The notes under the pieces: model-generated
The model's input: the letters and a program-made list of their open reading frames with translations, nothing else
Databases searched by the model: none
What the model was told of the DNA's origin: nothing
Shown: in pieces, positions 8,664-54,365 of the stretch
Position numbering within the stretch: position 1 is the stretch's first letter
How the letters are laid out: each line of letters opens with the position of its first letter
Made by a program: the position numbers and the translations under genes
Assembly: GCA_040954595.2 (NCBI GenBank)
Contig: CM082582.2
Location: 2,216,303 to 2,280,302 of the forward strand
Reading direction: 5' to 3'
Source of the DNA: Balanoglossus misakiensis
Lineage: Eukaryota; Animalia; Hemichordata
DNA length: 64,000 bases

Positions 8664-8957
8664 GTGATTGGAACTGCGCTGAGTACTACAGCTGGCCTCC
8701 AAGGCGCAAGACCGCGGCGTGTATGTACACTTTTCGTGTCCCGGCTGAATCCAGCAACAACATGTGAAAATGTTGAGCGCTATGCTGCGGACAAATTTGA
8801 TGTAGGTGTGAACTGTACAAAACTGAAAACAAAGTATGATATGTATGCTTCTTTTATGGTTGAATTATCTGATGTAGACATTAGAGTTGCCCTTGATCCT
8901 GTAAATTGGCCTCAGGATACTCTTGTAAGAAAATACTATAAATCTCAGACGCCATGA
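8664..8957 (+). pseudogene. Non-LTR retrotransposon ORF1, C-terminal RRM-like part (5'-truncated)
   Basis: LFVSRLNP...YASFMV...WPQDTLVRKY is a typical LINE ORF1 C-terminus. Its TGA overlaps the ORF2 ATG (ATGA at 8954-8957). Confidence 0.75.
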
Positions 8958-10570: not shown

Positions 10571-10800
10571 AGGGCCCAAGCGCTTGCTTGCGCTTGGGCC
10601 CTATTGGTTTCGTTGGGGTTTTTAGGGCCCAAGCCAAGCCAGGCTTGGGCCCTATTGGTTTCGTTGGAATTTTTCAGTCTTTCTTTCTTTCTTTAGGGCC
10701 CAAGCGCATACCAGCGCTTGGGCCCTATTGGTTTCGTTGGGGTTTTTAGGGCCCAAGCGCAAGCAAGCGCTTGGGCCCTATTGGTTTCGTTGGAATTTTT
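10571..10800 (+). repeat. Stack of four ~53-bp palindromic element heads
   Basis: Repeating unit ttagggcccaagc[variable loop]gcttgggccctattggtttcgttgg(gg/aa)tttt. Confidence 0.95.
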
Positions 10801-13800: not shown

Positions 13801-16800
13801 ACCTTTGACCTACTTAACACTATATCAGCACCAAACATAGATATAACCTTGATATTTCATTTGCTAAAACACAGCATTATGTTTCTACTCATTAATTATG
13901 TGCATATCTAATAATCAGATCAGATAATAAAGCTTGGGCCCGGACAATGCTGCTTGCAGCTTTAATTCTTTCTTTCTTTCTTTCTTTCTTTATTCTTGTG
14001 TCAATTCTTTGTCGCTCTAGATCTCAGACACCGCTGCAGGTACACTTCTGAAACTTGCTACAGTGGTCAAGGTCAATGAGTAGTCGTGCATTGAACCCTT
14101 GAATTTTTAATTAGTCACGTGACCTGGCGGCCATATTGGATATTCTGAAAAAATGCAAATCTCAGATCTCAGAAACTACAAGTCAGATCGACTTCAAATT
14201 TGGTGTGCAGGTAGTTTACCTTCTACCCATCATTTTTGTAATTGGAAATTATGCTGTCAATGTTGCAGTTTTTTTGCTACAATTTTTTTTCTGAAATCTG
14301 GCTTAAATTTCAAAAATCTTCTTCTCCAGAACCGGTGATAACCGAGTCACGCGGTTTGGGGTATGTGGTCACCTAACTGATGTCTATCAAGTTTGCGAAG
14401 ATCATTGTGATTGGTTGAAGATTATGGCGGCCATATTGGATTTTCGAAAAACCCTAGTAAAATTTCAAAAATCTTCTTCTCAAGAACCGGCGATAACCGA
14501 GTCACAAGATTTGGTGTGTGTGGTCACTAAACAGATGTCTATCAAGTTTGCGAAGAGGAATGTGATTGGTCGAAGATTATGGCGGCCATATTGGATTTTG
14601 TGAAAAACGATTAAAAAGTAAAAATTCCCTTTCTAGCCTAAAAATTGATAGCACAGAAATTCTTTTTATGGATATGAATCATCATATGACAAGAATAAGC
14701 TATAAATATTTTGGTAATTTTGGCAATGACCTTTGACCTACTTTTGACGCATGATTTTTCTGCATATCTAATTCCAGGCTAACCAATAGGGCTATAAGTT
14801 TGGTTTTTGATGTATGTCGATTTGTATGTGATCCAAAAATTTTGCTACTTTTCATGACCCCTTTGACCTCTGCTGACCTCATTAAATATGTACATACCTA
14901 ATTACAGATGAACCAATAGACCTAGAGGTTTTGTTTTTGTTATACATGGACCAGTATGGGGTCAAAATATTTTGCCCAAATGTTGGGTGACCTCAGGTGA
15001 CCTTTGACCTACTTTTGCATATCTCGACATCCACAGCAGATACAGCCTTGGCGTTTGGAGGTATGGGGCCATAATGAAAAGCCAAAGTTTTGGGTCACCT
15101 GTGACACCTGCTTAACTCATTAATTATGTGCATACCTAATTATAGGCTAACCAAAAGGGCTAGAGGTCTGGTTTTTGTTGGACATGGACCACTATGGGTC
15201 AAAATTTTCTGCCCAAATTTTGGATGACCTCAGATGACCTTTGACCTACTTTTGCATATCTCGGCATCCAAAGCAGGTACAGCCTTGGCATTTGGAGGTA
15301 TGGGGCCATAATGAAAAGCCAAAGCCAAAGTTTTGGGTCACCTGTGACACCTGCTTTAGGCATTATTTATGTGCATACCTAATTCCAGGCTAACCAAAAG
15401 GGCTAGAGGTCTGGTTTTTGTTGGACATGGACCACTATGGGTTAAAATTTTCTGCCCAAATGTTGGGTGACCTCTGGGTGACCTTTGACCTACTTAACAC
15501 TTTATCAGCACCAAACATAGATATAACCTTGATATTTCATGGGATAGAACAGCATTATGTTTCTACTCATTAATTATGTGCATATCTAATATCAGATCAG
15601 ATAATAGAGCTTGGGCCCGGACAATGCTGCTTGCAGCTTTAATTCTTTCTTTCTTTCTTTATTCTTGTGTCATTCTTTGTCGCTCTAGATCTCAGACACC
15701 ACTGCAGATACAGTTCTCAAACTTGCTACAGTGGTCAAGGTCAATGAGTAGTCGTGCATTGAACCCATGAATTTTTAATTAGTCACATGACCTGGCGGCC
15801 ATATTGGATTTTCTGAAAAAATGCAAATCTCAGATCTCAGAAACTACAAGTCAGATCGACTTCAAATTTGGCGTGCAGGTAGACTACCTTCTGTCAATCA
15901 TTTTTGTAATTGGAAATTATGCTGACAAAGTTGCAGTTTTTTTGCTACAATTTTTTTTCTGAAATCTGGCTTAAATTTCAAAAATCTTCTTCTCCAGAAC
16001 CGGTGATAACCAAGACACGGGGTTTGGGGTATGTGGTCACCTAACTGATGTCTATCAAGTTTGCGAAGATCATTGTGATTGGTTGAAGATTATGGCGGCC
16101 ATATTGGATTTTCGAAAAACCCTAGTAAAATTGCAAAATTCTTCTTCTCAAGAACCGGCGATAACCGAGTCACAAGATTTGGTGTGTGTGGTCATTAATC
16201 AGATGTCTATCAAGTTTGCGAAGAGCATTGTGATTGGTCGAAGATTATGGCGGCCATATTGGATTTTGTGAAAAACGATTAAAAAGTAGAAATTCCCTTT
16301 CTAGCCTAAAAATTGATAGCACAGAAATTCTTTTTATGGATATGAATCATCATATGACAAGAATAAGCTATAAATATTTTGGTAATTTTGGCAATGACCT
16401 TTGACCTACTTTTGACGCATCATTTTTCTGCATATCTAATTCCAGGCTAACCAATATGGCTATAAGTTTGGTTTTTGATGTATGTGGATTTGTATGTGAT
16501 CAAAAAATTTTGCTACTTTTTGTGACCCCTTTGACCTCTGCTGACCTCATTAAATATGCACATACCTAATTAATGATGAACCGGTAGACCTAGAGGTTTT
16601 GTTTTTGTTATACATGGACCAGTATGGGGTCAAAATATTTTGCCCAAATGTTGGGTGACCTCGGGTGACCTTTGACCTACTTTTGCATATCTCGACATCC
16701 ACAGCAGATACAGCCTTGGCGTTTGGAGGTATGGGGCCATAATGAAAAGCCAAAGTTTTGGGTCACCTGTGACCCCTGCTCAACTCATTATTTATGTGCA

Positions 16801-18497
16801 TACCTAATTCTGTGCTAACCAAAAGGCCTAGAGGTCTGGTTTTTGTTGGACATGGACCACTATGGGTCAAAATTTTCTGCCCAAATTGTGGGTGACCTCT
16901 GGGTGACCTTTGACCTACTTAACACTATATCAGCACCAAACATAGATATAACCTTGATATTTCATGGGATAAACACAGCATTATGTTCCATCTCATTAAT
17001 TATGTGCATATCTAATATCAGATCAGATAATAAAGCTTGGGCCCGGACAATGCTGCTTGCAGCTTTAATTCTTTCTTTCTTTCTTTCTTTTTTCTTGTGT
17101 CAATTCTTCGGCCAACGAGATCTCTTAAACTACTGCAGGTACACTGCTCAAACTTGCTACAGTTGTCAAGGTCTATGAGTAGATGTGCAGTGACTTGTAA
17201 ATACTTAATTAGTCATGTGACCTGGCGGCCATATTGGATTTTCTGAAAAAATGCAAATCTCAGATCTCAGAAACTACTAGTCAGATCGACTTCAAATTTG
17301 GCATGCAGGTAGACTACCTTCTACCCATCATTTTTGTAATTGGAAATTTTGCTGTCAATGTTGCAGTTTTTTTGCTACAATTTTTTTTCTGAAATCTGGC
17401 TTAAATTTCAAAAATCTTCTTCTCCAGAACCGGTGATAACCGAGACACGGGGTTTGGGGTATGTGGTCACCTAACTGATGTCTAGCAAGTTTGAGAAGAT
17501 CATTGTGATTGGTCGAAGATTATGGCGGCCATATTGGATTTTCGAAAAACCATAGTTAAACTCCAAAAATCTTCTTCTCCAGAACGGGCGATGACTGAGT
17601 CGCAAGATTCGGGGAGTATGGTCACTACACTGATGTCTATCAAGTTTGCAAAGAGCATTGTGATTGGTCGAAGATTATGGCGGCCATATTGGATTTTGTC
17701 AAAAGCAGTGAAAAATTGAAATTCCTTTTTCTAGTCTAAAAATTGATAGCATACAAATTCTTTTTATGGATATCAATCGTCATGTGACTAAAATATGTTA
17801 GAATTTTTTGGCGATTTTTCACATGACCTTTGACCTACTTATCACGCGTTATTATTTCTGCATATCTAATTCCAGGCTAACCTGTAGGGCTAGACGTTTG
17901 GTTTTTGATGAATGTGGATTAGTGTGTGATCAAAATATTTTGCTACTTTACATGACCCCTTTGACCTCTGCTGACCTCATTAATTATGTGCATAGCTAAT
18001 TACAGGTGAACCAATAGAGCTAGAGGTTTGGTTTTTGTTGGACATGGACCAGTATGGGATCAAAACTTTTTGCCCAAATGTTGTGTGACCTCTGGTGACC
18101 TTTGACCTACTTTCGCATATCTCAGCATCCAGAGCAGATACAGCCATGGCATTTGGTAGGATGGGACCAAAATGTAAAGCCACATTTTTGGGTCACCTGT
18201 GACATCTGCTGACCTCATTAAATATGCACATACCTAATTACAGGCGAACCAATAGAGCTAGAGTTTTGGTTTTTGTTGGACGTGGACCAGTATGGGTAAA
18301 AAAAAATTGCCCAAATGTTGGGTGATCTCAGGTGACCTTTGACCTACTTCACCCTATTTCAGCAGCAAAAATACACACATCCTTGTTATGTCATGAGATA
18401 ATACATCCGATAGAAAATTCTGTTTCTTCTCATTCATACTGTGCATATATAATTCGAGATCAGCGCTTGGGCCCGACAATGCTGCTCGCAGCTTTAA
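10571..18497 (+). mobile_element. Cluster 1: five nested non-autonomous Helentron-like (HINE/DINE-1-type) elements
   Basis: Heads (agggcccaagc-loop-gcttgggccct) at 10571, 10624, 10695, 10748 and 12228. Tails (gcttgggccc...gctgct[t/c]gcagc-tttaa) end at 12225, 13965, 15642, 17068 and 18497. The cluster sits in a T-run of the LINE with only two extra T and no longer TSD. Confidence 0.8.
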
Positions 18498-18499
18498 TT

Positions 18500-18580
18500 T
18501 TAGTTCCAATTATTAAGGATAAAACTAAGCTTTGTAGTGATGCCAGTAACTACCGGCCGATAGCACTAGCAACTGTTTTT
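18500..18580 (+). mobile_element. Resumption of LINE ORF2 (RT N-terminal motif)
   Basis: LVPIIKDKTKLCSDASNYRPIALATVF joins in frame to AIKVI ending at 10570. NYRPI is the canonical LINE RT motif. Confidence 0.93.
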
Positions 18581-19934
18581 GAAATATCAAGGTTATATCT
18601 ATGTTTGGTGCTGATATAGTGTTAAGTAGGTCAAAGGTCACCCAGAGGTCACCCACAATTTGGGCAGAAAATTTTGACCCATAGTGGTCCATGTCCAACA
18701 AAAACCAGACCTCTAGGCCTTTTGGTTAGCACAGAATTAGGTATGCACATAAATAATGAGTTGAGCAGGGGTCACAGGTGACCCAAAACTTTGGCTTTTC
18801 ATTATGGCCCCATACCTCCAAACGCCAAGGCTGTATCTGCTGTGGATGTCGAGATATGCAAAAGTAGGTCAAAGGTCACCCGAGGTCACCCAACATTTGG
18901 GCAAAATATTTTGACCCCATACTGGTCCATGTATAACAAAAACAAAACCTCTAGGTCTACCGGTTCATCATTAATTAGGTATGTGCATATTTAATGAGGT
19001 CAGCAGAGGTCAAAGGGGTCACAAAAAGTAGCAAAATTTTTTGATCACATACAAATCCACATACATCAAAAACCAAACTTATAGCCATATTGGTTAGCCT
19101 GGAATTAGATATGCAGAAAAATGATGCGTCAAAAGTAGGTCAAAGGTCATTGCCAAAATTACCAAAATATTTATAGCTTATTCTTGTCATATGATGATTC
19201 ATATCCATAAAAAGAATTTCTGTGCTATCAATTTTTAGGCTAGAAAGGGAATTTCTACTTTTTAATCGTTTTTCACAAAATCCAATATGGCCGCCATAAT
19301 CTTCGACCAATCACAATGCTCTTCGCAAACTTGATAGACATCTGATTAATGACCACACACACCAAATCTTGTGACTCGGTTATCGCCGGTTCTTGAGAAG
19401 AAGAATTTTGCAATTTTACTAGGGTTTTTCGAAAATCCAATATGGCCGCCATAATCTTCAACCAATCACAATGATCTTCGCAAACTTGATAGACATCAGT
19501 TAGGTGACCACATACCCCAAACCCCGTGTCTTGGTTATCACCGGTTCTGGAGAAGAAGATTTTTGAAATTTAAGCCAGATTTCAGAAAAAAAATTGTAGC
19601 AAAAAAACTGCAACTTTGTCAGCATAATTTCCAATTACAAAAATGATTGACAGAAGGTAGTCTACCTGCACGCCAAATTTGAAGTCGATCTGACTTGTAG
19701 TTTCTGAGATCTGAGATTTGCATTTTTTCAGAAAATCCAATATGGCCGCCAGGTCATGTGACTAATTAAAAATTCATGGGTTCAATGCACGACTACTCAT
19801 TGACCTTGACCACTGTAGCAAGTTTGAGAACTGTATCTGCAGTGGTGTCTGAGATCTAGAGCGACAAAGAATGACACAAGAATAAAGAAAGAAAGAAAGA
19901 ATTAAAGCTGCAAGCAGCATTGTCCGGGCCCAAG
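18580..19934 (-). repeat. 1355-bp inverted duplicate of 15610-16964
   Basis: The ends map as reverse complements (coordinate sum 35544). The mirrored ORF translations are identical: 16083-16271(+) with 19273-19461(-), and 16550-16753(-) with 18791-18994(+). Confidence 0.95.
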
Positions 19935-19949
19935 TTTTTGAGCATATTT

Positions 19950-20400
19950 GGGGGCACAAGCGCCCTCAGGCGGCTTGTGCCCCCATTGTTATTGTTGGAA
20001 TTTTTCTTTATTAGGGCCCAAGCGCACGCAAGCGCTTGGGCCCTATTGGTTTTGTTGGAATTTTTAGGGCCCAAGCGCACGCAAGCGCTTGGGCCCTATT
20101 GGTTTCGTTGGAATTTTTTAGGGCCCAAGCGCAACAAGCAAGCGCTTGGGCCCTATTGGTTTCGTTGGAATTTTTCTTTCTTTCTTTAGGGCCCAAGCGC
20201 TTGCTTGCGCTTGGGCCCTATTGGTTTCGTTGGGGTTTTTAGGGCCCAAGCGCAAGCAAGCGCTTGGGCCCTATTGGTTTCGTTGGAATTTTTTAGGGCC
20301 CAAGCCCAGCAGGCTTGGGCCCTATTGGTATTACTGGGGTTTTTTAGGGCACAAGCCCCACAGGCTTGTGCCCTATTGGTATTGTTGGCTTTTTTCTTCT
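19950..20400 (+). repeat. Stack of eight heads from three subfamilies
   Basis: Divergent head gggggcacaagc...gcttgtgccccc at 19950; family A heads at 20013, 20066, 20120, 20188 and 20241; family B heads (followed by ggtatt) at 20295 and 20346. Confidence 0.95.
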
Positions 20401-23400
20401 ACTTCTTCTTGGGCACTTTTTTCGGCCAGGTAGATCTGAAAAACTGCTGAACCCAAAAATCTCAAATTTGGCACAATGGTGCAGGCCAATGAGAGCTGGT
20501 GCAGTACCCTCGTGAATGTTCAATAAGTCATGTGACCTGATGACCATATATGGGCAAAATTTTCAAATCGGCCTTATTTGCATATGCACGGAGATATCAA
20601 AATTCTTTTAGCAACTTTTGTGAACCATGTGGTCAGGGTTCTACATGCCAAATGTCAAGGCCATAGGCCTTGTCAATTTTGAGAAGAAGATTTTTAAGTA
20701 TTATTTTTCATATTTTTCGGCCAAGCCATCGGCCTATACTATACATAGTTAAGCTTTGACCACATTTTATTTTGGATGAATATGCAGTCATATCTCAAAA
20801 TATGTTGGGCCGATCAACTCCAAGTTTGGTGTGCAGGTAGCTTAGCATTTGCCAATAATTTTAAGCGAAAAAAATTAATATGAAAAATCGACCGATTTTT
20901 TTATATTAATTTTTTTATGAAATTTATACCTTTACTTATACCTCTATGGTTAAGCTATGTCCACGTCTTATTGTAGAATTCTGGTCTGTGCAATGTTCCT
21001 GTACACTGACTGTCTATTGGCCCGTGCGCAGAATGGGACCAAAATAAAAGGCAAAATTTTGGGCTCACCTGTAACACCTGCTTAACTCATTAATTATGCA
21101 CATACCTCATTCCGGGCTAACTAATAGGGCTAGAGGTATTGTTCTTGTGTGACAAGGACTAGTATGGGGTCAAAAATGTTTACCAAATTTTCGGTGACCT
21201 CAGGTGACCTTTGACCTACTTTCCTATATCTCGGCATCCAGAGCAGGTACAGACTTGGCGTTTGGAGGGTTGTGACTAAAATTGAAAAGCCAAAATGGGG
21301 ATCACCTGTGACACCTGCATATCTCATTAATTATGTGCATACCTAATTCCAGGATGACCAGTAGAGCTATAGGTTTGGTTTTTGTTGAACATGGACCAGT
21401 ATAGGGTCAAAATTTCTTGCCCAAATTTCGCATGACCTCAGGTGACCTTTGACCTACTTTACCATATCTTGGCATCCAGAGCAGGTACAGACTTGGCGTT
21501 CGGAGGGTTGGGATTAAAATTGAAAAGCCGAATTGGCGCTCACCTGTGTCACCTGCATATCTCATTAATTATGTGCATACCTAATTCCAGGCTAACCAAT
21601 AGAGCTATAGGTTTGGTTTTTGTTAAACATGGACCAGTATAGGGTCAAAATTTCTTGCCCAAATTTTGCATGACCTCAGGTGACCTTTGACCTACTTTAC
21701 CAGATCTCGGCATCCAGAGCAGGTACAGGCTTGGCGTTTGGAGGGTTGGGACTAAAATTGGAAAGCCAAATTGGGGGTCAGTTGTGACACCTGCCTACCT
21801 CATTAATTATGTGCATACCTAATTTCAGGCTAACCAATAGGGCTATAGGTTTGGTTTTTGTTGAACATGGACCAGTATAGGGTCAAAATTTCTTGCCGAA
21901 ATTTTGCATGACCTCAGGTGACCTTTGACCTACTTAACCATATCTTGGCATCCAGAGCAGATATGCTTATTGCTATGTTGCTATGTGCTATGTTGGCTTG
22001 GGCCCGCTATTGCTGCTTGCAGCTATATTCTTCTACTTCTTCTTCTTTTTCTTCTTCTGTCATTTTCTTTGGCGAGGTAGATCTGGAAAACTGCTAAACC
22101 TACCAATTTCAAACTTGGCACAATGGTGCAGGCCAATGAGAGCTAGTGCAGTACCCTTGTGAATGTTTAATTAGTCACGTGACCTGATGACCATATATGG
22201 GCAAAATTTTCAAATCCGCCTTATTTGCATATGAATGGAGATATCACAATTCTTTTAGCAACTTTTGCGGACCATGTGGTCAGTGTCCTACATGCCAAAT
22301 GTCAAGGCCATTGGCCATGCCAATTTTGAGAAGAAGATTTTTAAGTATTATTTTCCATATTTTTTGACCAAGCCATGGGCCTATACTTTACATAGTAAAG
22401 CTATGACCACATATTATTTTGGAGAAATAAGCATACATATCTCAAAATCTGTTAGGCCGATCATCTCCAACTTTGGTGTGCAGCAAGCCTAGCATTTGTC
22501 AATAATTTTAAGCAGAAAAAAATAATATGAAAAATCGACAGATTTTTTTATATTAATTTGTTTATTAAATTTATACCTTTGCTTATACCTCTATGGTTAA
22601 GCTATGTCCATGTCTTATTGTGGAATTCTGGTCAGTGCGATAGTCCTGTACAGTGAGTGTCTATTGGTCAGTGAGCACAATGGCACCAAAATAAAAGGCA
22701 AAATTTTAGGCTCACCTGTAACACCTGCTTAACTCATTAATTATGTGCATACCTAATTCTGGGCTAACTAAGAGGGCTAGATGTTTCGTTCTTGTGGGAC
22801 ATGGACCAGTATAGGGCCAACATTTCTTGCCCAAATTTGGGGTGAACTCAGGTGACCTTTGACCTACTTTCCTATATCTCGGCATCCAGAGCAGGTACAG
22901 ACTTGGCGTTTGGAGGGTTGGGACTAAAGTTGAAAAGCCAAAATAGGGGTCACCTGTGACACCTGCATATCTCATTAATTATGTGCATACCTAATTCCAG
23001 GCTAACCAATAGGGCTATAGGTTTTGTTTTTGTTGAACATGGACCAGTACAGGGTCAAAATTTCTTGCCCAAATTTTGCATGACCTCAGGTGACCTTTGA
23101 CCTACTTTACCAGATCTTGGCATCGAGAGCAGGTACAGACTTGGCGTTTGGAGGGTTGGGACTAAAATTGAAAAGCCAAATTGGGGGGTCACCTGTGACA
23201 CCTGCCTACCTCATTAATTATGTGCATACCTAATTCCAGGCTAACCAATAGGGCTATAGGTTTGGTTTTTGATGAACATGGACCAGTATAGGGTCAAAAT
23301 TTCTCGCCCAAATTTTGCATGACCTCAGGTGACCTTTGACCTACTTTTCCATATCTTGGCATCCAGAGCAGATATGCTTATTGCTATGTTGCTATGTGCT

Positions 23401-23440
23401 ATGTTGGCTTGGGCCCGCCATTGCTGCTTGCAGCTATATT
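20295..23440 (+). mobile_element. Two nested family-B HINE-like elements
   Basis: Two B heads are followed by two B bodies with a (CTT)n linker, a distinct body sequence and tails ending gcagctatatt. Confidence 0.85.
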
Positions 23441-24874
23441 CTTTCTTTCTTTCTTTCTTTCTTTATTCTCCTGTCAATTCTTCGGCCAACGAGATCTCTG
23501 AAACTACTGCAGGTACACTGCTCAAACTTGCTACAGTGGTCAAGGTCAATGAGTAGATGTGCAGTGGCTTGTGAATATTTAATTAGTCACGTGACATGGC
23601 GGCCATATTGGATTTTCTAAAAAAAATGCAAATCTCAGATCTCAGAAACTACAAGTCAGATCGACTTCAGATTTGGCGTGCAGGTAGTCTACCTTCTGCC
23701 CATCATTTTTGTAATTGTATATTTTGCTGTCAATGTTGCAGTTTTTTTGCTACAGTTGTTTTTCTGAAATCTGGCTTAAATTTCAAAAATCTTCTTCTCC
23801 AGAACCGGTGATAACCGAGTCACGCGGTTTGGGGTATATGGTCACCAAACTGATGTCTATCAAGTTTGCGAAGATCATTGTGATTGGTCGAAGATTATGG
23901 CGGCCATATTAGATTTTCGAAAAACCATAGTAAAACTCCAAAAATCTTCTTCTCCAGAAGGGGCAATAACTGAGTCGCAAGATTCGGGGAGTATGGTCTC
24001 TACACTGATGTCTATCAAGTTTGCCAGGAGCATTGTGATTGGTCGAAGATTATGGCGGCCATATTGGATTTTGTAAAAAGCAATGAAAAATTGAAATTCC
24101 TTTTTCTAGTCTAAAAATTGATAGCATACAAATTCTTTTCATGGATATCAATCGTCATGTGACTAAAATATGTTACAAATTTTAGGCGATTTTTCACATG
24201 ACCTTTGACCTACTTTTCACGCATTATTATTTCTGCATATCTAATTCCAGGCTAACCTATAGGGGTAGACGTTTGGTTTTTGATGCATGTGGATTAGTGT
24301 GTGATCAAAATATTTTGCTACTTTCCATGACCCCTTTGACCTCTGCTCACCTCATTAATTATGTGCATAGCTAATTACGGGCGAACCAATAGAGCTAGAG
24401 GTTTGGTTTTTGTTGGACATGGACCAGTATGGGATCAAAATTTTTTGCCCAAATGTTGGGTGACCTCTGGTGACCTTTGACCTACTTTCGCGTATCTCAA
24501 CATCCAGAGCAGATACAGCATTGGCATTTGGCAGGATGGGACCAAAATGTAAAGCCACATTTTTGGGTCACCTGTGACACCTGTTGACCTCATTAGATAT
24601 GCACATACCTTATTACCGGTGAACCAATAGAGCTAGAGTTTTGGTTTTTGTTGGACATGGCCCAGTATGGGTCAAAAAATTTTGCCCAAATGTTGGGTGA
24701 CCTGAGGTGACCTTTGACCTACTTTACTCTATTTCAGCAGCAAAAATACATATGTCCTTGTTATGTCATGAGATAAAACACCCGATAGAGCATTCTGTTT
24801 CTTCTGAATCATACTGTGCATATATAATACCGGATCAGCGCTTGGGCCCGGCAATGCTGCTTGCAGCTTTAATT

Positions 24875-25140
24875 AGGGCCCAAGCGCATACCAGCGCTTG
24901 GGCCCTATTGGTTTCGTTGGAATTTTTAGGGCCCAAGCGCAAGCAAGCGCTTGGGCCCTATTGGTTTCGTCTGGGTTTTTCTGTCTTTAGGGCCCAAGCG
25001 CATACCAGCGCTTGGGCCCTATTGGTTTCGTTGGGGTTTTTCAGTCTTTCTTTCCTTCTTAGGGCCCAAGCGCAAGCAAGCGCTTGGGCCCTATTGGTTT
25101 CGTTGGGGTTTTTCTGTCTTTCCTTCTTTCTTCTTTCTTT
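24875..25140 (+). repeat. Stack of four heads
   Basis: Heads at 24875, 24928, 24989 and 25061; near-copy of the stack at 26555. Confidence 0.95.
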
Positions 25141-26554
25141 CTTTATTCTTGTGTCAATTCTTTGTCGCTCTAGATCTCAGACACCGCTGCAGGTACACTT
25201 CTGAAACTTGCTACAGTGGTCAAGGTCAATGAGTAGTCGTGCATTGAACCCTTGAATTTTTAATTAGTCACGTGACCTGGCGGCCATCTTGGATTTTCTG
25301 AAAAAATGCAAATCTCAGATCTCAGAAACTTCAAGTCAGATCAACTTCAAATTTGGCATGCAGGTAGACTACCTTCTACCCATCATTTTTGTAATTGGAA
25401 ATTTTGCTGTCAATGTTGCAGTTTTTTCGCTACAATTTTTTTTCTGAAATCTGGCTTAAATTTCAAAAATCTTCTTCTCCAGAACCGGTGATAACCGAGA
25501 CACGGGGTTTGGGGTATGTGGTCACCTAACTGATGTCTATCAAGTTTGCGAAGATCATTGTGATTGGTCGAAGATTATGGCGGCCATATTGGATTTTCAA
25601 AAAACCATAGTTAAACTCCAATAATCTTCTTCTCCAGAATGGGCGATGACTGAGTTGCAAGATTCGGGGAGTATGGTCTCTACACTGATGTCTATCAAGT
25701 TTGCCAGGAGCATTGTGATTGGTCGAAGATTATGGCGGCCATATTGGATTTTGTAAAAAGCAATGAAAAATTGAAATTCCTTTTTCTAGTCTAAAAATTG
25801 ATAGCATACAAATTCTTTTCATGGATATCAATCGTCATGTGACTAAAATATGTTACAAATTTTAGGCGATTTTTCACATGACCTTTGACCTACTTTTCAC
25901 GCATTATTATTTCTGCATATCTAATTCCAGGCTAACCTATAGGGGTAGACGTTTGGTTTTTGATGCATGTGGATTAGTGTGTGATCAAAATATTTTGCTA
26001 CTTTCCATGACCCCTTTGACCTCTGCTCACCTCATTAATTATGTGCATAGCTAATTACGGGCGAACCAATAGAGCTAGAGGTTTGGTTTTTGTTGGACAT
26101 GGACCAGTATGGGATCAAAATTTTTTGCCCAAATGTTGGGTGACCTCTGGTGACCTTTGACCTACTTTCGCGTATCTCAACATCCAGAGCAGATACAGCA
26201 TTGGCATTTGGCAGGATGGGACCAAAATGTAAAGCCACATTTTTGGGTCACCTGTGACACCTGTTGACCTCATTAGATATGCACATACCTTATTACCGGT
26301 GAACCAATAGAGCTAGAGTTTTGGTTTTTGTTGGACATGGCCCAGTATGGGTCAAAAAATTTTGCCCAAATGTTGGGTGACCTGAGGTGACCTTTGACCT
26401 ACTTTACTCTATTTCAGCAGCAAAAATACATATGTCCTTGTTATGTCATGAGATAAAACACCCGATAGAGCATTCTGTTTCTTCTGAATCATACTGTGCA
26501 TATATAATACCGGATCAGCGCTTGGGCCCGGCAATGCTGCTTGCAGCTTTAATT

Positions 26555-26925
26555 AGGGCCCAAGCGCATACCAGCGCTTGGGCCCTATTGGTTTCGTTGG
26601 AATTTTTAGGGCCCAAGCGCAAGCAAGCGCTTGGGCCCTATTGGTTTCGTTGGAATTTTTAGGGCCCAAGCGCACAGCAGCGCTTGGGCCCTATTGGTTT
26701 CGTCTGGGTTTTTCTGTCTTTAGGGCCCAAGCGCATACCAGCGCTTGGGCCCTATTGGTTTCGTTGGGGTTTTTCAGTCTTTCTTTCCTTCTTAGGGCCC
26801 AAGCGCAAGCAAGCGCTTGGGCCCTATTGGTTTCGTTGGGGTTTTTTAGGGCCCAAGCGCAAGCAAGCGCTTGGGCCCTATTGGTTTCGTTGGAATTTTT
26901 CTTTCTTTCTTTCTTTCTTTCTTTA
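26555..26925 (+). repeat. Stack of six heads
   Basis: Heads at 26555, 26608, 26661, 26722, 26794 and 26848. Confidence 0.95.
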
Positions 26926-29900
26926 TTCTCCTGTCAATTCTTCGGCCAACGAGATCTCTGAAACTACTGCAGGTACACTGCTCAAACTTGCTACAGTGGT
27001 CAAGGTCAATGAGTAGATGTGCAGTGGCTTGTGAATATTTAATTAGTCACGTGACATGGCGGCCATATTGGATTTTCTAAAAAAAATGCAAATCTCAGAT
27101 CTCAGAAACTACAAGTCAGATCGACTTCAGATTTGGCGTGCAGGTAGTCTACCTTCTGCCCATCATTTTTGTAATTGTATATTTTGCTGTCAATGTTGCA
27201 GTTTTTTTGCTACAGTTGTTTTTCTGAAATCTGGCTTAAATTTCAAAAATCTTCTTCTCCAGAACCGGTGATAACCGAGTCACGCGGTTTGGGGTATATG
27301 GTCACCAAACTGATGTCTATCAAGTTTGCGAAGATCATTGTGATTGGTCGAAGATTATGGCGGCCATATTAGATTTTCGAAAAACCATAGTAAAACTCCA
27401 AAAATCTTCTTCTCCAGAAGGGGCAATAACTGAGTCGCAAGATTCGGGGAGTATGGTCTCTACACTGATGTCTATCAAGTTTGCCAGGAGCATTGTGATT
27501 GGTCGAAGATTATGGCGGCCATATTGGATTTTGTAAAAAGCAATGAAAAATTGAAATTCCTTTTTCTAGTCTAAAAATTGATAGCATACAAATTCTTTTC
27601 ATGGATATCAATCGTCATGTGACTAAAATATGTTACAAATTTTAGGCGATTTTTCACATGACCTTTGACCTACTTTTCACGCATTATTATTTCTGCATAT
27701 CTAATTCCAGGCTAACCTATAGGGGTAGACGTTTGGTTTTTGATGCATGTGGATTAGTGTGTGATCAAAATATTTTGCTACTTTCCATGACCCCTTTGAC
27801 GTCTGCTCACCTCATTAATTATGTGCATAGCTAATTACGGGCGAACCAATAGAGCTAGAGGTTTGGTTTTTGTTGGACATGGACCAGTATGGGATCAAAA
27901 TTTTTTGCCCAAATGTTGGGTGACCTCTGGTGACCTTTGACCTACTTTCGCGTATCTCAACATCCAGAGCAGATACAGCATTGGCATTTGGCAGGATGGG
28001 ACCAAAATGTAAAGCCACATTTTTGGGTCACCTGTGACACCTGTTGACCTCATTAGATATGCACATACCTTATTACCGGTGAACCAATAGAGCTAGAGTT
28101 TTGGTTTTTGTTGGACATGGCCCAGTATGGGTCAAAAAATTTTGCCCAAATGTTGGGTGACCTGAGGTGACCTTTGACCTACTTTACTCTATTTCAGCAG
28201 CAAAAATACATATGTCCTTGTTATGTCATGAGATAAAACACCCGATAGAGCATTCTGTTTCTTCTGAATCATACTGTGCATATATAATACCGGATCAGCG
28301 CTTGGGCCCGGCAATGCTGCTTGCAGCTTTAATCTGTCTTTCCTTCTTTCTTCTTTAGGGCCCAAGCGCATACCAGCGCTTGGGCCCTATTGGTTTCGTT
28401 GGGGTTTTTCTTTCTTTCTTTCTTTCTTTCTTTATTCTTCTGTCAATTCTTTGTCGCTCTAGATCTCAGACACCGCTGCAGGTACACTTCTGAAACTTGC
28501 TACAGTGGTCAAGGTCAATGAGTAGTCGTGCATTGAACCCTTGAATTTTTAATTAGTCACGTGACCTGGCGGCCATATTGGATATTCTGAAAAAATGCAA
28601 ATCTCAGATCTCAGAAACTACAAGTCAGATCGACTTCAAATTTGGTGTGCAGGTAGTCTACCTTCTACCCATCATTTTTGTAATTGGTTATTTTGCTGTG
28701 AATGTTGCAGTTTTTTTGCTACAATTTTTTTTCTGAAATCTGGCTTAAATTTCAAAAATCTTCTTCTCCAGAACCGGTGATAACCGAGTCACGCGGTTTG
28801 GGGTATGTGGTCACCTAACTGATGTCTATCAAGTTTGCGAAGATCATTGTGATTGGTTGAAGATTATGGCGGCCATATTGGATTTTCGAAAAACCCTAGT
28901 AAAATTTCAAAAATCTTCTTCTCAAGAACCGGCGATAACCGAGTCACAAGATTTGGTGTGTGTGGTCACTAAACAGATGTCTATCAAGTTTGCGAAGAGG
29001 AATGTGATTGGTCGAAGATTATGGCGGCCATATTGGATTTTGTGAAAAACGATTAAAAAGTAAAAATTCCCTTTCTAGCCTAAAAATTGATAGCACAGAA
29101 ATGCTTTTTATGGATATGAATCTTCATATGACAAGAATAAGCTATAAATATTTTGGTAATTTTGGCAATGACCTTTGACCTACTTTTGACGCATGATTTT
29201 TCTGCATATCTAATTCCAGGCTAACCAATAGGGCTATAAGTTTGGTTTTTGATGTATGTCGATTTGTATGTGATCCAAAAATTTTGCTACTTTTCATGAC
29301 CCCTTTGACCTCTGCTGACCTCATTAAATATGTACATACCTAATTACAGATGAACCAATAGACCTAGAGATTTTGTTTTTGTTATACATGGACCAGTATG
29401 GGGTCAAAATATTTTGCCCAAATGTTGGGTGACCTCAGGTGACCTTTGACCTACTTTTGCATATCTCGACATCCACAGCAGATACAGCCTTGGCGTTTGG
29501 AGGTATGGGGCCATAATGAAAAGCCAAAGTTTTGGGTCACCTGTGACACCTGCTTAACTCATTAATTATGTGCATACCTAATTATAGGCTAACCAAAAGG
29601 GCTAGAGGTCTGGTTTTTGTTGGACATGGACCACTATGGGTCAAAATTTTCTGCCCAAATTTTGGATGACCTCAGATGACCTTTGACCTACTTTTGCATA
29701 TCTCGGCATCCAAAGCAGGTACAGCCTTGGCATTTGGAGGTATGGGGCCATAATGAAAAGCCAAAGCCAAAGTTTTGGGTCACCTGTGACACCTGCTTTA
29801 CGCATTATTTATGTGCATACCTAATTCCAGGCTAACCAAAAGGGCTAGAGGTCTGGTTTTTGTTGGACATGGACCACTATGGGTTAAAATTTTCTGCCCA

Positions 29901-32900
29901 AATGTTGGGTGACCTCTGGGTGACCTTTGACCTACTTAACACTTTATCAGCACCAAACATAGATATAACCTTGATATTTCATGGGATAGAACAGCATTAT
30001 GTTTCTACTCATTAATTATGTGCATATCTAATATCAGATCAGATAATAGAGCTTGGGCCCGGACAATGCTGCTTGCAGCTTTAATTAGGGCCCAAGCGCA
30101 TACCAGCGCTTGGGCCCTATTGGTTTCGTTGGGGTTTTTCTGTCTTTCCTTCTTTCTTCTTTCTTTCTTTCTTTCTTTATTCTTGTGTCAATTCTTTGTC
30201 GCTCTAGATCTCAGACACCGCTGCAGGTACACTTCTCAAACTTGCTACAGTGGTCAAGGTCAATGAGTAGTCGTGCATTGAACCTGTGAATTTTTAATTA
30301 GTCACGTGACCTGGCGGCCATCTTGGATTTTCTAAAAAAATGCAAATCTCAGATCTCAGAAACTACAAGTCAGATCGACTTCAAATTTGGCATGCTGGTA
30401 GACTACCTTCTGCCCATCATTTTTGTAATTGGAAATTATGCTGACAATGTTGCAGTTTTTTTGCTACAATTTTTTTTCTGAAATCTGGCTTAAATTTCAA
30501 AAATCTTCTTCTCCAGAACCGGCGATAACCGAGTCACGTCGTTTGGGGTATGTGGTCACCTAACAGATGTCTATCAAGTTTGCGAAGATCATTGTGATTG
30601 GTCGAAGATTATGGCGGCCATATTGGATTTTCGAAAAACCATAGTAAAACTTCAAAAATATTCTTTTCCAGAACGGGCGATAACCGAGTCACAAGATTTG
30701 GTGTGTGTGGTCATTAAACAGATGTCTATCAAGTTTGAGAAGGGGAATGTGATTGGTCGAAGATTATGGCGGCCATATTGGATTTTGTGAAAAACGATTA
30801 AAAAGTAAAAATTCCTTTTCTAGCCTAAAAATTGATAGCACAGAAATTCTTTAGATGGATATGAATCATCATATGACAAGAATAAGCTATAAATATTTTG
30901 GTAATTTTGGCAATGACCTTTGACCTACTTTTGACGAATCATTTTTCTGCATATCTAATTCCAGGCTAACCAATACGGCTATAAGTTTGGTTTTTGATGT
31001 ATGTGGATTTGTATGTGATCAAAAAATGTTGCTACTTTTCATGACCCCTTTGACCTCTGGTGACCTCATTAAATATGCGCATACCTAATTAATGATGAAC
31101 CAATAGACCTAGAGGTTTTGTTTTTGTTATACATGGACCAGTATGGGGTCAAAAATTTTTGCCCAAATGTTGGGTGACCTCGGGTGACCTTTGACCTACT
31201 TTGGCATATCTTGACATCCACAGCAGATACAGCCTTGGCGTTTGGAGGTATAGGGCCATAATGAAAAGCCAAAGTTTCGGGTCACCTGTGACACCTGCTT
31301 AACTCATTATTTATGTGCATACCTAATTCCGGGCTAACCAAAAGGGCTAGAGATCTGGTTTTTGTTGGACATAGACCATTATGGGTCAAAATATTCTGCC
31401 CAAATAATTGGTGACCTCTGGGTGACCTTTGACCTACTTAATACTATGTCAACAACAAACCTAGATATAACCTTGATATTTTATGGGATAAAACACAGCA
31501 TTATGTTTCTACTCATTAATTATGTGCATATCTAATAATCAGATCAGATAATAGAGCTTGGGCCCGAACAATGCTGCTTGCAGCTTTAATTAGGGCCCAA
31601 GCGCATACCAGCGCTTGGGCCCTATTGGTTTCGTTGGGGTTTTTCTTTCTTCTTTCTTTCTTTATTCTTGTGTCAATTCTTTGTCGCTCTAGATCTCAGA
31701 CACCGCTGCAGGTACACTTCTGAAACTTGCTACAGTGGTCAAGGTCAATGAGTAGTCGTGCATTGAACCTGTGAATTTTTAATTAGTCACGTGACCTGGC
31801 GGCCATATTGGATTTTCTGAAAAAATGCAAATCTCAGATCTCCGAAACTACAAGTCAGATCAACTTCAAATTTGGTGTGCAGGTAGTCTACCTTCTACCC
31901 ATCATTTTTGTAATTGGATATTTTGCTGTAAATGTTGCAGTTTTTTTGCTACAATTTTTTTTCTGAAATCTGGCTTAAATTTCAAAAATCTTCTTCTCCA
32001 GAACCGGTGATAACTGAGTCACGCGGTTTGGGGTATGTGGTCACCTAACTGATGTCTATCAAGTTTGCGAAGATCATTGTGATTGGTCGAAGATTATGGC
32101 GGCCATATTGGATTTTCGAAAAACCATAGTAAAACTTCAAAAATCTTCTTCTCAAGAACGGGCGATAACCGAGTCACAAGATTTGGTGTGTGTGGTCATT
32201 AAACAGGTGTCTATCAAGTTTGCGAAGGGGAATGTGATTGGTCGAAGATTATGGCGGCCATATTGGATTTTGTGAAAAACGATTAAAAAGTAAAAATTCC
32301 TTTTCTAGCCTAAAAATTGATAGCACAGAAATTCTTTTTATGGATATGAATCATCATATGACAAGAATAAGCTATAAATATTTTGGTAATTTTGGCAATG
32401 ACCTTTGACCTACTTTTGACGCATCATTTTTCTGCATATCTAATTCCAGGCTTACCAATAGGGCTATAAGTTTGGTTTTTGATGTATGTGGATTTGTATG
32501 TGATCAAAAAATGTTGCTACTTTTCATTACCCCTTTGACCTCTGGTGACCTCATTAAATATGCGCATACCTAATTAATGATGAACCAATACACCTAGAGG
32601 TTTTGTTTTTGTTATACATGGACCAGTATGGGGTCAAAATATTTTGCCCAAATGTTGGGTGACCTCGGGTGACCTTTGACCTACTTTTGCATATCTCGAC
32701 ATCCACAGCAGATACAACCTTGGCGTTTGGAGGTATGGGGCCATAATGAAAAGCCAAAGTTTTGGGTCACCTTTGACACCTGCTTAACTCATTATTTATG
32801 TGCATACCTAATTCCGGGCTAACCAAAAGGGCTAGAGGTCTGGTTTTTGTTGGACATGGACCACTATGGGTCACAATTTTCTGCCCAAATTGTGGGTGAC

Positions 32901-35900
32901 CTCTGGGTGACCTTTGACCTACTTAACACTATATCAACACCAAGCATAGATATAACCTTGATATTTCATGGGATAAAACACAGCATTATGTTTCTACTCA
33001 TTAATTATGTGCATATCTAATAATCTGATCAGATAATAGAGCTTGGGCCCGGACAATGCTGCTTGCAGCTTTAATTCTTTCTTTATTCTTGTGTCAATTC
33101 TTTGTCGCTCTAGATCTCAGACACCGCTGCAGGTACACTTCTGAAACTTGCTACAGTGGTCAAGGTCAATGAGTAGTCGTGCATTGAACCCTTGAATTTT
33201 TAATTAGTCACGTGACCTGGCGGCCATCTTGGATTTTCTGAAAAAATGCAAATCTCAGATCTCAGAAACTTCAAGTCAGATCAACTTCAAATTTGGCATG
33301 CAGGTAGACTACCTTCTACCCATCATTTTTGTAATTGGAAATTTTGCTGTCAATGTTGCAGTTTTTTCGCTACAATTTTTTTTCTGAAATCTGGCTTAAA
33401 TTTCAAAAATCTTCTTCTCCAGAACCGGTGATAACCGAGACACGGGGTTTGGGGTATGTGGTCACCTAACTGATGTCTATCAAGTTTGCGAAGATCATTG
33501 TGATTGGTCGAAGATTATGGCGGCCATATTGGATTTTCAAAAAACCATAGTTAAACTCCAATAATCTTCTTTTCCAGAATGGGCGATGACTGAGTTGCAA
33601 GATTCGGGGAGTATGGTCACTACACTGATGTCTATCAAGTTTGCAAAGAGCATTGTGATTGGTCGAAGATTATGGCGGCCATATTGGATTTTGTAAAAAG
33701 CAGTGAAAATTTTAAATTCCTTTTTCTAATCTAAAAATTGATAGCATACAAATTCTTTTTATGGATATAAATCGTCATGTGACTAAAATATGTTACAATT
33801 TTTTGGTGATTTTTCACATGACCTTTGACCTACTTATCACGCGTTATTATATCTGCATATCTAATTCCAGGCTAACCTATAGGGCTAGACGTTTGGTTTT
33901 TACTGAATGTGGATTAGTGTGTGATCAAAATATTTTGCTACTTTTCATGACCCCTTTGACCTCTGCTGACCTCATTAATTATGTGCATAGCTAATTACAG
34001 GCGAACCAATAGAGCTAGAGGTTTGGTTTTTGTTGGACATGGACCAGTATGGGATCAAAATTTTTTGCCCAAATGTTGGGTGACCTCTGGTGACCTTTGA
34101 CCTACTTTCGCATATCTCAGCATCCAGAGCAGATACAGCCATGGCATTTGGTAGGATGGGACCAAAATGTAAAGCCACATTTTTGGGTCACCTGTGACAC
34201 CTGCTGACCTCATTAAATATGCACATACCTAATTACAGGCGAACCAATAGAGCTAGAGTTTTGGTTTTTGTTGGACATGGACCAGTATGGGTAAAAAAAA
34301 AATGCCCAAATGTTGGGTGACCTCAGGTGACCTTTGACCTACATCACCCTATTTCAGCAGCAAAAATACACACGTCCTTGTTATGTCATGAGATAATACA
34401 TCCGATAGAAAATTCTGTTTCTTCTCATTCATACTGTGCATATATAATTCAAGATCAGCGCTTGGGCCCGACAATGCTGCTCGCAGCTTTAATTAGGGCC
34501 CAAGCGCATACCAGCGCTTGGGCCCTATTGGTTTCGTTGGGGTTTTTCAGTCTTTCTTTCCTTCTTTATTCTTGGTTCCATTTTTCGGCCACCTAAATCT
34601 CAAAAACTGCAGCACCAACCAGGCTGAAACTTGGTAGGCAGATAGGGGCCAATGAGTAGATGTGCAGTGGCTCGTGAATATTTAATTAGTCACGTGACCT
34701 GGCGGCCATATTGGATTTTCTGAAAAAATGCAAATCTCAGATCTCAGAAACTACAATTCAGATTGACTTCAAATTTGGTGTGCAGCTAGTATACCTTATG
34801 CCCATCATTTTTGTAATTGGATATTATGCTGTCAATGTTGCAGTTTTTTTGCTACAGTTGTTTTTCTGAAATCTGGTCAAATTTTCAAAAATCTTCTTCT
34901 CCAGAACCGGCAATAACCGAGTCACGCCATTTGAGGTATGTGGTCACCTAACTGATGTCTATCAAGTTTGCGAAGATCATTGTGATTGGTCGAAGATTAT
35001 GGCGGCCATATTGGATTTTCGAAAAACCATAGTAAAACTTCAAAAATCTTCTTCTCCAGAACGGGCAATAACTGAGTCGCAAGATTCGGGGAGTATGGTC
35101 ACAACACTGATGTCTATCAAGTCTGCAAAGAGCATTGTGATTGGTCGAAGATTATGGCGGCCATATTGGATTTTGTAAAAAGCAGTGAAAAATTGAAATT
35201 CCTTTTCCTTGTCTAAAAATTGATAGCATCTAAATTCTGTTCATGGATATCAATCGTCATGTGACTAAAATATGTTACAAATTTTTGGCGATTTTTCACA
35301 TGACCTTTGACCTACTTATCACGCGTTATTATTTCTGCATATCTAATTCCAGGCTAACCTATAGGGCTAGACTTTTGGTTTTTGATGCATGTGGATTAGT
35401 GTGTGATCAAAATATTTTGCTACTTTTCATGACCCCTTTGACCTCTGCTGACCTCATTAATTATGTGCATAGCTAATTACAGGCGAACCAATAGAGCTAG
35501 AGGTTTGGTTTTTGTTGGACATGGACCAGTATGGGATCAAAAATTTTTGTCCAATTGTTGGGTGACCTCTGGTGACCTTTGACCTACTTTCGCATATCTC
35601 AGCATCCAGAGCAGATACAGCCATGGCATTTGGTAGGATGGGACCAAAATGTAAAGCCACATTTTTGGGTCACCTGTGACACCTGCTGACCTCATTAAAT
35701 ATGCACATACCTAATTACAGACGAACCAATAGAGCTAGAGTTTTGGTTTTTGTTGGACATGGACCAGTATGGGTCAAAAAAATTGCCCAAATGTTGGGTG
35801 ACCTCAGGTGACCTTTGACCTACTTCACCCTATTTCAGCAGCAAAAATACACACATCCTTGTTATGTCATGAGATAATACATCCGATAGAAAATTCTGTT

Positions 35901-38821
35901 TTTTCTCATTCAAACTGTGCATATGTAATTCAAGATCAGCGCTTGGGCCCGACAATGCTGCTCGCAGCTTTAATTTATTCTTGGTTCCATTTTTCGGCCA
36001 CCTAAATCTCAAAAACTGCAGCACCAACCAGGCTGAAACTTGGTAGGCAGATAGGGGCCAATGAGTAGATGTGCAGTGGCTCGTGAATATTTAATTAGTC
36101 ACGTGACCTGGCGGCCATATTGGATTTTCTGAAAAAATGCAAATCTCAGATCTCAGAAACTACAAGTCAGATTGACTTCAAATTTGGTGTGCAGCTAGTA
36201 TACCTTATGCCCAACATTTTTGTAATTGGATATTATGCTGTCAATGTTGCAGTTTTTTTGCTACAGTTGTTTTTCTGAAATCTGGTCAAATTTTCAAAAA
36301 TCTTCTTCTCCAGAACCGGCGATAACCGAGTCACGCCATTTGAGGTATGTGGTCACCTAACTGATGTCTATCAAGTTTGCGAAGATCATTGTGATTGGTC
36401 GAAGATTATGGCGGCCATATTGGATTTTCGAAAAACCATAGTAAAACTTCAAAAATCTTCTCCTCCAGAACGGGCGATAACCGAGTCACAAGATTTGGTG
36501 TGTGTGGTCATTAAACAGATGTCTATCAAGTTTGCGAAGGGGAATGTGATTGGTCGAAGATTATGGCGGCCATATTGGATTTTGTGAAAAACGATTAAAA
36601 AGTAAAAATTCCTTTTCTAGCCTAAAAATTGATAGCACAGAAATTCTTTTTATGGATATGAATCATCATATGACAAGAATAAGCTATAAATATTGTGGTA
36701 ATTTTGGCAATGACCTTTGACCTACTTTTGACGCATCATTTTTCTGCATATCTAATTCCAGGCTAACCAATAGGGCTATAAGTTTGGTTTTTGATGTATG
36801 TGGATTTGTATGTGATCAAAAAATTTTGCTACTTTTCATGACCCCTTTGACCTCTGCTGACCTCATTAAATATGCACATACCTAATTACAGATGAACCGA
36901 TAGACCTAGAGATTTTGTTTTTGTTATACATGGACCAGTATGGGGTCAAAATATTTTGCCCAAATGTTGGGTGACCTCGGGTGACCTTTGACCTACTTTT
37001 GCATATCTCGACATCCACAGCAGATACAGCCTTGGCATTTGGAGGTATGGGGCCATAATGAAAAGCCAAAGTTTTGGGTCACCTGTGACACCTGCTTTAC
37101 TCATTATTTATGTGCATACCTAATTCCGGGCTAACCAAAATGGCTAGAGGTCTGGTTTTTGTTGGACATGGACCACTATGGGTCAAAATGTTCTGCCCAA
37201 ATTGTGGATGACCCCTGGGTGACCTTTGATGTTTCTACTCATTAATTATGTGCATATCTAATAATCAGATCAGATAATAGAGCTTGGGCCCGGACAATGC
37301 TGCTTGCAGCTTTAATTCTTTCTTTATTCTTGGTTCCATTCTTTGGCCAACGAGATCTCAGACACCGCTGCAGGTACACTTCTCAAACTTGCTACAGTGG
37401 TCAAGGTCAATGAGTAGATGTGCAGTGACTTGTGAATACTTAATTAGTCACGTGACCTGGCGGCCATATTGGATTTTCTGAAAAAATGCAAATCTCAGAT
37501 CTCAGAAACTACAAGTCAGATCGACTTCAAATTTGGCATGCAGGTAGACTTCCTTGTACCCATCATTTTTGTAATTAGAAATTTTGCTGTCAATGTTGCA
37601 GTTTTTTTGCTACAGTTGTTTTTCTGAAATCTGGCTTAAATTTCAAAAATCTTCTTCTCCAGAACCGGTGATAACCGAGTCACACCGTTTGGGGTATGTG
37701 GTCACCTAACTGATGTCTATCAAGTTTGCGAAGATCATTGTGATTGGTCGAAGATTATGGCGGCCATATTGGATTTTCGAAAAACCGTAGTTAAACTCCA
37801 AAAATCTTCTTCTCCAGAACAGGCGATGACTGAGTCGCAAGATTCGGGGAGTGTGGTCACTACACTGATGTCTATCAAGTTTGCAAAGAGCATTGTGATT
37901 GGTCGAAGATTATGGCGGCCATATTGAATTTTGTAAAAAGCAGTGAAAAATTTAAATTCCTTTTTCTAGTCTAAAAATTGATAGCATACAAATTCTTTTC
38001 ATGGATATCAATCGTCATATGACTACAATATGTTACAAATTTTTGGCGATTTTTCACATGACCTTTGACCTACCTATCACGCGTTATTATTTCTGCATAT
38101 CTAATTCCAGGCTAACCTATAGGGCTAGACGTTTGGTTTTTGATGAATGTGGATTAGTGTGTGATCAAAATATTTTGCTACTTTTCATGACCCTTTTGAC
38201 CTCTGCTGACCTCATTAATTATGTGCATAGCTAATTACAGGCGCACCGATAGAGCTAGAGGTTTGGTTTTTGTTGGACATGGACCAGTATGGGATCACCA
38301 TTTTTTGCCCAAATGTTGGGTGACCTCTGGTGACCTTTGACCTACTTTCGCATATCTCAGCATCCAGAGCAGATACAGCCATGGCATTTGGTAGGATGGG
38401 ACCAAAATGTAAAGCCACATTTTTGGGTCACCTGTAACACCTGCTGACCTCATTAAATATGCACATACCTAATTACAGGCGAACCAATAGAGCTAGAGTT
38501 TTGGTTTTTGTTGGACATGGACCAGTATGGGTAAAAAAAATTGCCCAAATGTTGGGTGACCTCAGGTGACCTTTGACTTACTTCACCCTATTTCAGCAGC
38601 AAAAATACACACATCCTTGTTATGTCATGAGATAATACATCCGATAGAAAATTCTGTTTCTTCTCATTCATACTGTGCATATATAATTCAAGATCAGCGC
38701 TTGGGCCCGACAATGCTGCTCGCAGCTTTAATTCTTTCTTTCTTTCTTTATTCTTGTGTCAATTCTTCGGCCAACGAGATCTCTGAAACTACTGCAGGTA
38801 CACTTCTCAAACTTGCTACAA

Positions 38822-54203: not shown

Positions 54204-54365
54204 ATGGTTAATTGGTTTTGTGCGGCTACGGACTGTACTATCAGCTTGCGCAATAAAAGAAACGCCGCAAAATACCCTGGATTGGCAGAGGTGACATTTC
54301 ATGCATTCCCAACTGAGAAACATCGCTGACTTCGGCAGCAGTGGATTTCCGTGTTACGTCGAAAG
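54204..54365 (+). pseudogene. THAP zinc-finger relic (transposase N-terminus)
   Basis: MVNWFCAATDC...(frameshift)...VTFHAFPTEKHR*LRQQWISVLRR has the THAP C-x-C, FP and W pattern. No DDE core was recognised downstream. Confidence 0.7.

Follow-up and report, generated by a model that had tools for sequence, protein, structure and literature searches.

What separates the head of a repeated element from its body at this locus, and where do further copies insert? The window, a stretch of 64,000 nt from Balanoglossus misakiensis, consists for most of 10.5-59.8 kb of units 1.4-1.7 kb in length. Each unit starts with a hairpin head and ends with a defined tail, and in many of them head and body lie apart. 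A first-pass annotation proposed that two elements of subfamily B sit inside an element of subfamily A whose uninterrupted twin is located nearby, and that different subfamilies therefore share one target. The features on which our analysis rests are as follows.

8954..19948, + strand: host LINE-type retroelement ORF (endonuclease 8954-9541), broken by nest 1, an inverted copy and nest 2
10570..18498, + strand: nest 1, five heads and five tails, balanced, in the LINE reading frame, no target duplication
19949..59750, + strand: nest 2, 30 heads and 23 tails, six heads open at the right side of the window (corrected parse)
20240..20293, + strand: 5' part of the split A element with first T, 14-bp hairpin (20240-20273), spacer and T5 (twin alignment; fold -19.1 kcal/mol, z -6.2)
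20294..20344, + strand: 5' part of the outer B element (B1), which follows A's T-run, 21 nt behind the A hairpin
20345..22029, + strand: inner B element (B2), in one piece and directly following B1's T-run, with 238-bp central repeats (joint 20342->22028)
22030..23440, + strand: B1 continued, body plus tail (the uninterrupted 57713 differs at 10 of 304 columns)
23441..24873, + strand: microsatellite, body and tail of the split A element (3' inverted repeat, stem-loop)
24874..26553, + strand: product of a local 1680-bp duplication, comprising four heads (three without their own body) and one chimeric body
26554..26846, + strand: stack of five A heads (26555, 26608, 26661, 26722, 26794), bodies at 33075-44430
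26847..28333, + strand: uninterrupted twin of the A element, nested in head 26794
57712..59750, + strand: B1-type head and body, tail missing, continuing towards the Helentron gene
62865..63983, - strand: putative Helentron RepHel, C-terminal helicase and AP endonuclease part, truncated by the window edge

The split A element and its twin

Positions 20241-20294 joined to 23441-24872 were aligned to 26848-28332, and 1484 of 1486 columns match, in line with the near-identity that had been predicted. The mismatches are one extra T in the T-run and one substitution. Since the element ends are set at the starting T, the extra T is best read as the first base of the inserted B1 element. The offset of 3460 between the A body and that of the twin and the equal microsatellite length (6.5-6.8 units) were likewise recovered. 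Between the A head and the A body we found the B heads 20295 and 20346 as well as the two B bodies that end at 22029 and 23440. This arrangement stands as first described, while the boundary of the B block had to be corrected to 20294-23440.

Arbitrary pairings of heads and bodies do not align equally well to the twin. Only three of 918 control pairings (34 heads x 27 bodies, the twin's own head and body excluded) reach one difference, all of them using body 23441 with heads 10748, 20241 or 26608, which are identical in sequence. Within its own stack of eight heads 20241 is the sole best (one difference, the others 2-15), head 20066 being just one base worse. The second-ranked body, a local chimera, shows 51 differences to the twin and all remaining ones at least 70 (26 bodies compared, the one carrying a 2.9 kb insertion skipped). 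The twin signal is carried mostly by the body; as four of the 35 heads are identical, a matching head by itself is weak evidence and has to be backed by the bracket order. Moreover, body 23441 agrees with the twin at 24 alignment columns in which none of 19 other A bodies does. The two are therefore parent and daughter or daughters of one recent donor. According to variant rows of public contigs, bases private to the twin may be uncommon genome-wide, the placement of tied contigs being ambiguous.

Nesting of the B pair in the A element is supported by this twin, by a second twin of the outer B element (head 20295 plus body 22030 versus the uninterrupted 57713) and by the B1 joint 20342->22028, which is present at depths of 3010 and 5935 in contigs of two public runs of one sample, perhaps the one from which the window derives. 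The same twin and contig evidence speaks for one target common to both subfamilies. This joint represents an intact B1, and contigs of the two runs also hold one head-after-head joint and one tail-before-head loose end; in public run X3 next to none of the searched sequence words are present.

Anatomy and classification of the elements

A unit opens with a T and a 13-14 bp hairpin, and a spacer leads to a run of five or six T's; the microsatellite (CTTT or CTT), the body and the 3' end follow in this order. A T precedes the defined start in 34 of the 35 heads; the remaining one starts one base earlier, likewise on T. The two hairpins that were folded reach -19.1 and -16.8 kcal/mol (z -6.2 and -4.6), which none of 200 shuffles equals. 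Repeat periods are 4, 155 and 238, and bodies contain 155- and 238-bp central repeats. An inverted copy of the hairpin arm is located 24-25 nt from the 3' end in all 28 tails, and 5' arm and 3' repeat are complementary over 10-13 nt in 27/28 pairs (B2 with one mismatch). A 5-bp palindrome at the 3' end is conserved in 28/28 tails. The tail ends 6 nt after this stem in all 28, the 6-nt end being A-type in 26 and B-type in two. A 3' stem-loop is predicted in both tails folded, the 50-mers folding no better than shuffles (z 0.4-0.7). Neither A nor B units show coding capacity, and their bodies are 58-63% alike overall. The 18 closed sites read T|T (14) or T|C (4) and lack a target duplication according to the twins and the LINE frame, whereby the assignment of T's to element or host is ambiguous, as in the literature; a TT target duplication at A elements is a formal possibility.

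HINE/DINE-1 elements are described with a 5' subterminal repeat hairpin, a microsatellite, central tandem repeats and a 3' repeat plus stem-loop (PMC4067079, PMC2374699, PMC7492417). In these sources they also share the T-rich target, the lack of target duplication and T's at both ends; their microsatellite is GTCY in contrast to CTTT/CTT here, and they are described as dispersed copies, whereas the units of our window are deeply nested behind the 5' hairpin. Helitron2/HLE2 is reported with a 5' T, a hairpin-forming 5' repeat at most 2 nt from the end (0-2 nt), a 3' repeat 20-30 nt from the end, and insertion between TTTT and T/C or at T|T; the passages compared describe it without self-targeted nests (PMC3627910, PMC11417382). 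Correspondingly, the 5' terminal repeat of our units lies 0-2 nt from the T start and folds into a hairpin, and its inverted copy falls within the 20-30 nt range (24-25 nt). A short 3' stem-loop, use of T|T or T|C targets that are not duplicated, a microsatellite behind the 5' end, central tandem repeats and the absence of coding complete the set. Hence the full end anatomy indicates that these elements are non-autonomous Helentrons of the HINE type (HINE/DINE-1, Helitron2).

Two other classes were rejected. Canonical Helitron1 has 5'-TC and CTRR-3' ends, an A|T target and no terminal repeats, features that our units do not show. The Helitron1 element Helraiser resembles them in the lack of target duplication and differs by its A|T target and the absence of terminal repeats (PMC4778049). 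A MITE or cut-and-paste TIR transposon is at odds with the asymmetric repeats, and the 2-3 extra T's fit fixed element ends.

Two nests inside one LINE gene

The locus around head 20241 is one corner of two large nests inside one LINE gene. Window-wide, 35 heads are found on the + strand and none on the - strand, together with 28 tails. Nest 1 is balanced (5/5), and its removal plus two T's restores a LINE-type ORF frame. In this ORF nest 2 follows after some 85 host bases and is open at its right end. Nest depth is up to 11 after removal of duplicated copies. The outermost head of nest 2 (19949-20012) is of a third type with a different hairpin, and its body must be located beyond the window. 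The LINE frame between the nests also contains 18580-19934, a segment of 1355 bp that repeats 15610-16964 in inverted orientation with 100% identity. Its ends show microhomology over a few bases, and templated repair or an assembly error is its likely origin.

Reading heads and tails as brackets revealed four further empty twins, each with 3-10 differences in about 300 columns, T's contributed by inserts included:

20295 vs 57713: 10 differences
26722 vs 34495: 4 differences
26794 vs 25061: 4 differences (25061 itself a product of local duplication)
10695 vs 28357: 3 differences

With a twin required to have the same head sequence and no more than 3 differences over 120 bases of the body, bracket pairing gives a matching uninterrupted twin for 5 of the 17 split elements versus 1.47 expected (p 0.003, 30000 shuffles). 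A tolerance of 1 yields 4 twins (p 0.002) and a tolerance of 5 yields 7 (p 7e-5); without the B element 4/16 are found versus 1.5 expected (p 0.03). First-in-first-out pairing succeeds in 2/28 cases versus 8/28 for bracket pairing. Similarity tests restricted to A elements were not significant (summed-distance score p 0.15, rank correlation p 0.44). The nested insertions amount to 29, which come from one window and are not necessarily independent events.

Local duplications where the brackets fail

The nesting reading given earlier holds for the B pair in the A element and fails at heads 24875, 24928 and 24989, which the brackets pair with bodies of the wrong type. In this region 23977-24970 is repeated exactly at an offset of 1680 (994 bp) and 24946-25113 at an offset of 1733. 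Body 25109 is chimeric, its first 400 nt matching 33075 and the part after 25656 matching 23441; a loss of 53 bp between neighbouring heads is present as well. The exact repeat at offset 1680 and the chimeric body therefore point to an unequal crossover that duplicated a head stack (a 1.7 kb local duplication). The three heads are left over from this duplication and are not nested elements. In addition, an exact block of 2974 bp (38822-41795) recurs at an offset of 2849 and adds two bodies. The whole region 38822-44644 thus is an exact 2849-bp tandem duplication of two bodies, a nest starting towards a higher-order satellite.

A corrected parse was made after seeing the data by removing the duplicate copies, which drops 4 heads and 3 tails; it rests on the exact blocks of 994 and 2974 bp. 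Bracket pairing fails for 3/17 split heads in the uncorrected parse, and in the corrected one head 20120 finds the right continuation of its microsatellite at 57657. Of the duplicated pair, head 25061 is empty and its copy 26794 contains four elements, the twin 26848 included. The four insertions in 26794 are therefore recent or allelic.

Nested insertions occur just behind the resident hairpin

In the corrected parse all 29 nested insertions are located 20-52 nt behind the hairpin of the resident element, 15 of them at 20-21 nt and the remaining 14 within the microsatellite at 27-52 nt. The 20-52 nt zone comprises 1047 bp and 4.5-6.3% of the element-internal T sites. No insertion was found in the bodies (42 kb with 1067 + 740 overlapping TTTT/AAAA sites). 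Binomial figures of 1e-35 and below presume independent events and are unusable as p-values. B entered A at the same spot despite the low likeness of their bodies, and head 26608 has four T's left, not five. The two outermost insertions are in the LINE with no hairpin nearby; hence the hairpin is a preference and not a requirement.

The head-stack pattern was also searched in other DNA. Viral contigs gave no match. Of 27 matching loci in metagenome contigs, 26 were rejected since the hairpin head is missing. The retained locus (L023), on an animal-type contig, carries a row of six related heads that lack a CTTT tract; the stack is located downstream of adenosine deaminase-like exons at the contig end, with the bodies beyond that end. 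Its heads may resemble fish elements. Nine of the metagenome loci (L003, L006, L009, L010, L012, L014, L019, L021 and L026) share another repeated element of short tandem units, which is unrelated to the hairpin heads.

A putative Helentron gene fragment and other features of the window

The - strand ORF at 62865-63983 encodes a predicted helicase C-terminus fused to an AP endonuclease, the remainder lying beyond the window edge. Its best full-length relatives are 52-57% identical and carry PF14214, PF05970 and PF03372, the Rep, PIF1 and endonuclease domains of Helitrons. The nearest are from Saccoglossus kowalevskii (57%), followed by Haliotis and fishes. The helicase-endonuclease fusion and the domain set of the relatives suggest a Helentron RepHel fragment. 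It is located 3 kb beyond the tail-less B-type head and body at 57713. This unit may be the end of an autonomous partner, because reversed ORFs are known in the Helentron group: in Helitron-1_DR (PMC3627910) and Helentron-Da-40 (PMC4067079) RepHel is reversed relative to the ends, and the gene in our window would likewise be reversed. The gene may belong to the mobilising element. Among 90 viral-contig candidates for Helentron relatives with flanks none was confirmed, and the 80 loci from prokaryote genomes are mostly helicase-part matches (33-73% over short segments), with no relatives with flanks found among them.

On the Helentron strand the transcript of this gene may end at a hexamer resembling a poly(A) signal (59925-59940, - strand), which is located near the end of B-like repeats. 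An imperfect inverted repeat (62570-62741; 70%, 184 columns) directly follows the stop codon of the Helentron ORF. Two small TIR elements are present: one of 2.9 kb, bounded by terminal inverted repeats, interrupts the last A body (54011-56877), its decayed frames resembling THAP and YqaJ-like domains of ISL2EU/Spy-type transposons, and one of about 1 kb with 39-bp inverted ends is located downstream of the Helentron ORF (60909-61878), its remnant frames being reminiscent of pogo/Tigger transposases. None of 8 frames from the two gave a Pfam match at a meaningful E-value. Weak COR-A/COR-B and Death domain matches below the curated cut-offs at 6876-8259 (- strand) weakly suggest a piece of a Roco-type host gene.

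A model for the nests and its rivals

Taken together, the HINE nests probably arose from a Helentron rolling-circle transposase that prefers T|T or T|C just behind a resident 5' hairpin. In known Helitron biology RepHel nicks the 5' end and peels off one strand, and a circle is formed and joined to the nicked target. The Helraiser transposase makes single-strand cuts at the ends and produces circles (PMC4778049). With a slight lean in its favour, the transposase may have docked on the resident's terminal inverted repeat or hairpin, the same signal at which copying starts. From there the enzyme would place the new copy at the next T|T/C downstream, about 20 nt away. An insert starting with T would rebuild the old target and add a fresh one, such that nests would deepen and side-by-side insertions at one bond would accumulate. 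This would account for the nest depth and for the eight heads that directly follow a tail.

The main rival accepts the nesting and takes the pyrimidine tract (T5 plus CTTT repeats) as the target, either easily unwound or preferred by the endonuclease, with the hairpin as a bystander. We give it roughly one chance in a handful or a little better. It would fit the 14/29 sites at 27-52 nt in the microsatellite, the outermost copies in the LINE without a hairpin, and Helitron2 insertion after TTTT as reported in PMC3627910. Against this, none of the many TTTT/AAAA sites in the bodies was used, half of the events fall at 20-21 nt, and the metagenomic heads stack without a CTTT tract, though their bodies lie beyond the contig end.

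Accounts without nested insertion would produce stacks of heads and headless bodies by slippage among 53-bp heads, unequal crossing-over, rolling-circle concatemers or multi-head chimeras, and we consider them improbable. The two exact local duplications and the 53-bp loss do explain three orphan heads and two surplus bodies in this manner, and heads right after tails are also expected from a concatemer or circle recombination. Yet adjacent heads and bodies come from different subfamilies, interrupted microsatellites pick up exactly where they broke off once the inner elements end, nest 1 is balanced within an intact host frame, and last-in-first-out pairing outperforms both shuffles and first-in-first-out. 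As a full account, a pure concatemer and pure unequal crossing-over are contradicted. Least credible is an array produced by the assembly through collapse or wrong joining of repeats. The exact blocks (994, 2974 and 1355 bp) might be assembly errors and no public contig spans the stretch, but differences between most units amount to 5-40%, public contigs contain the junction types with depths in the thousands, and mis-joins would give neither balanced brackets nor a restored host frame. Insertion behind the resident hairpin remains our preferred reading.

Relation to known systems and implications

Stacks of two to five 5' ends have been described for Fusarium FoHeli and ascribed to self-insertion near the 5' end; there, several 5' ends belong to one 3' end and self-insertion is inferred (PMC5148889, PMC13342296). 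Here, in contrast, bodies are kept in bracket order up to 11 deep, subfamilies are mixed, empty twins exist, the offset is measurable and the host is an animal. For Helraiser, no local hopping was recorded in 701 re-insertions (PMC4778049). Self-insertion at the 5' end was thus already known from Fusarium, and complete cross-subfamily bracket nests with a fixed offset appear to be new as judged from our searches. The full-text literature searched contains no such complete nest from animals; subscription journals, Repbase reports or supplements may contain one. Nested Helitrons reportedly occur in maize (PMC3288121).

To our knowledge, the target choice of Helitron2/Helentron is not known beyond 'TT'. 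The nests yield a sharp, testable rule: 20-21 nt behind a resident hairpin, in one orientation, common to subfamilies. They turn the Fusarium self-insertion model into an anatomy that can be read directly. As a warning, such blocks will be mistaken for headless tandem arrays in repeat annotation. The order in which subfamilies were active can be read from the nests, which also show one way in which a dispersed element can grow into a satellite-like block of 40 kb. Tentatively, and at somewhat less than even chances, an animal Helentron clade may dock on the 5' hairpin of any resident relative and insert about 20 nt behind it. This would be a safe-harbour rule across subfamilies and phyla, with self-renewing nests that record insertion order and seed repeat arrays.
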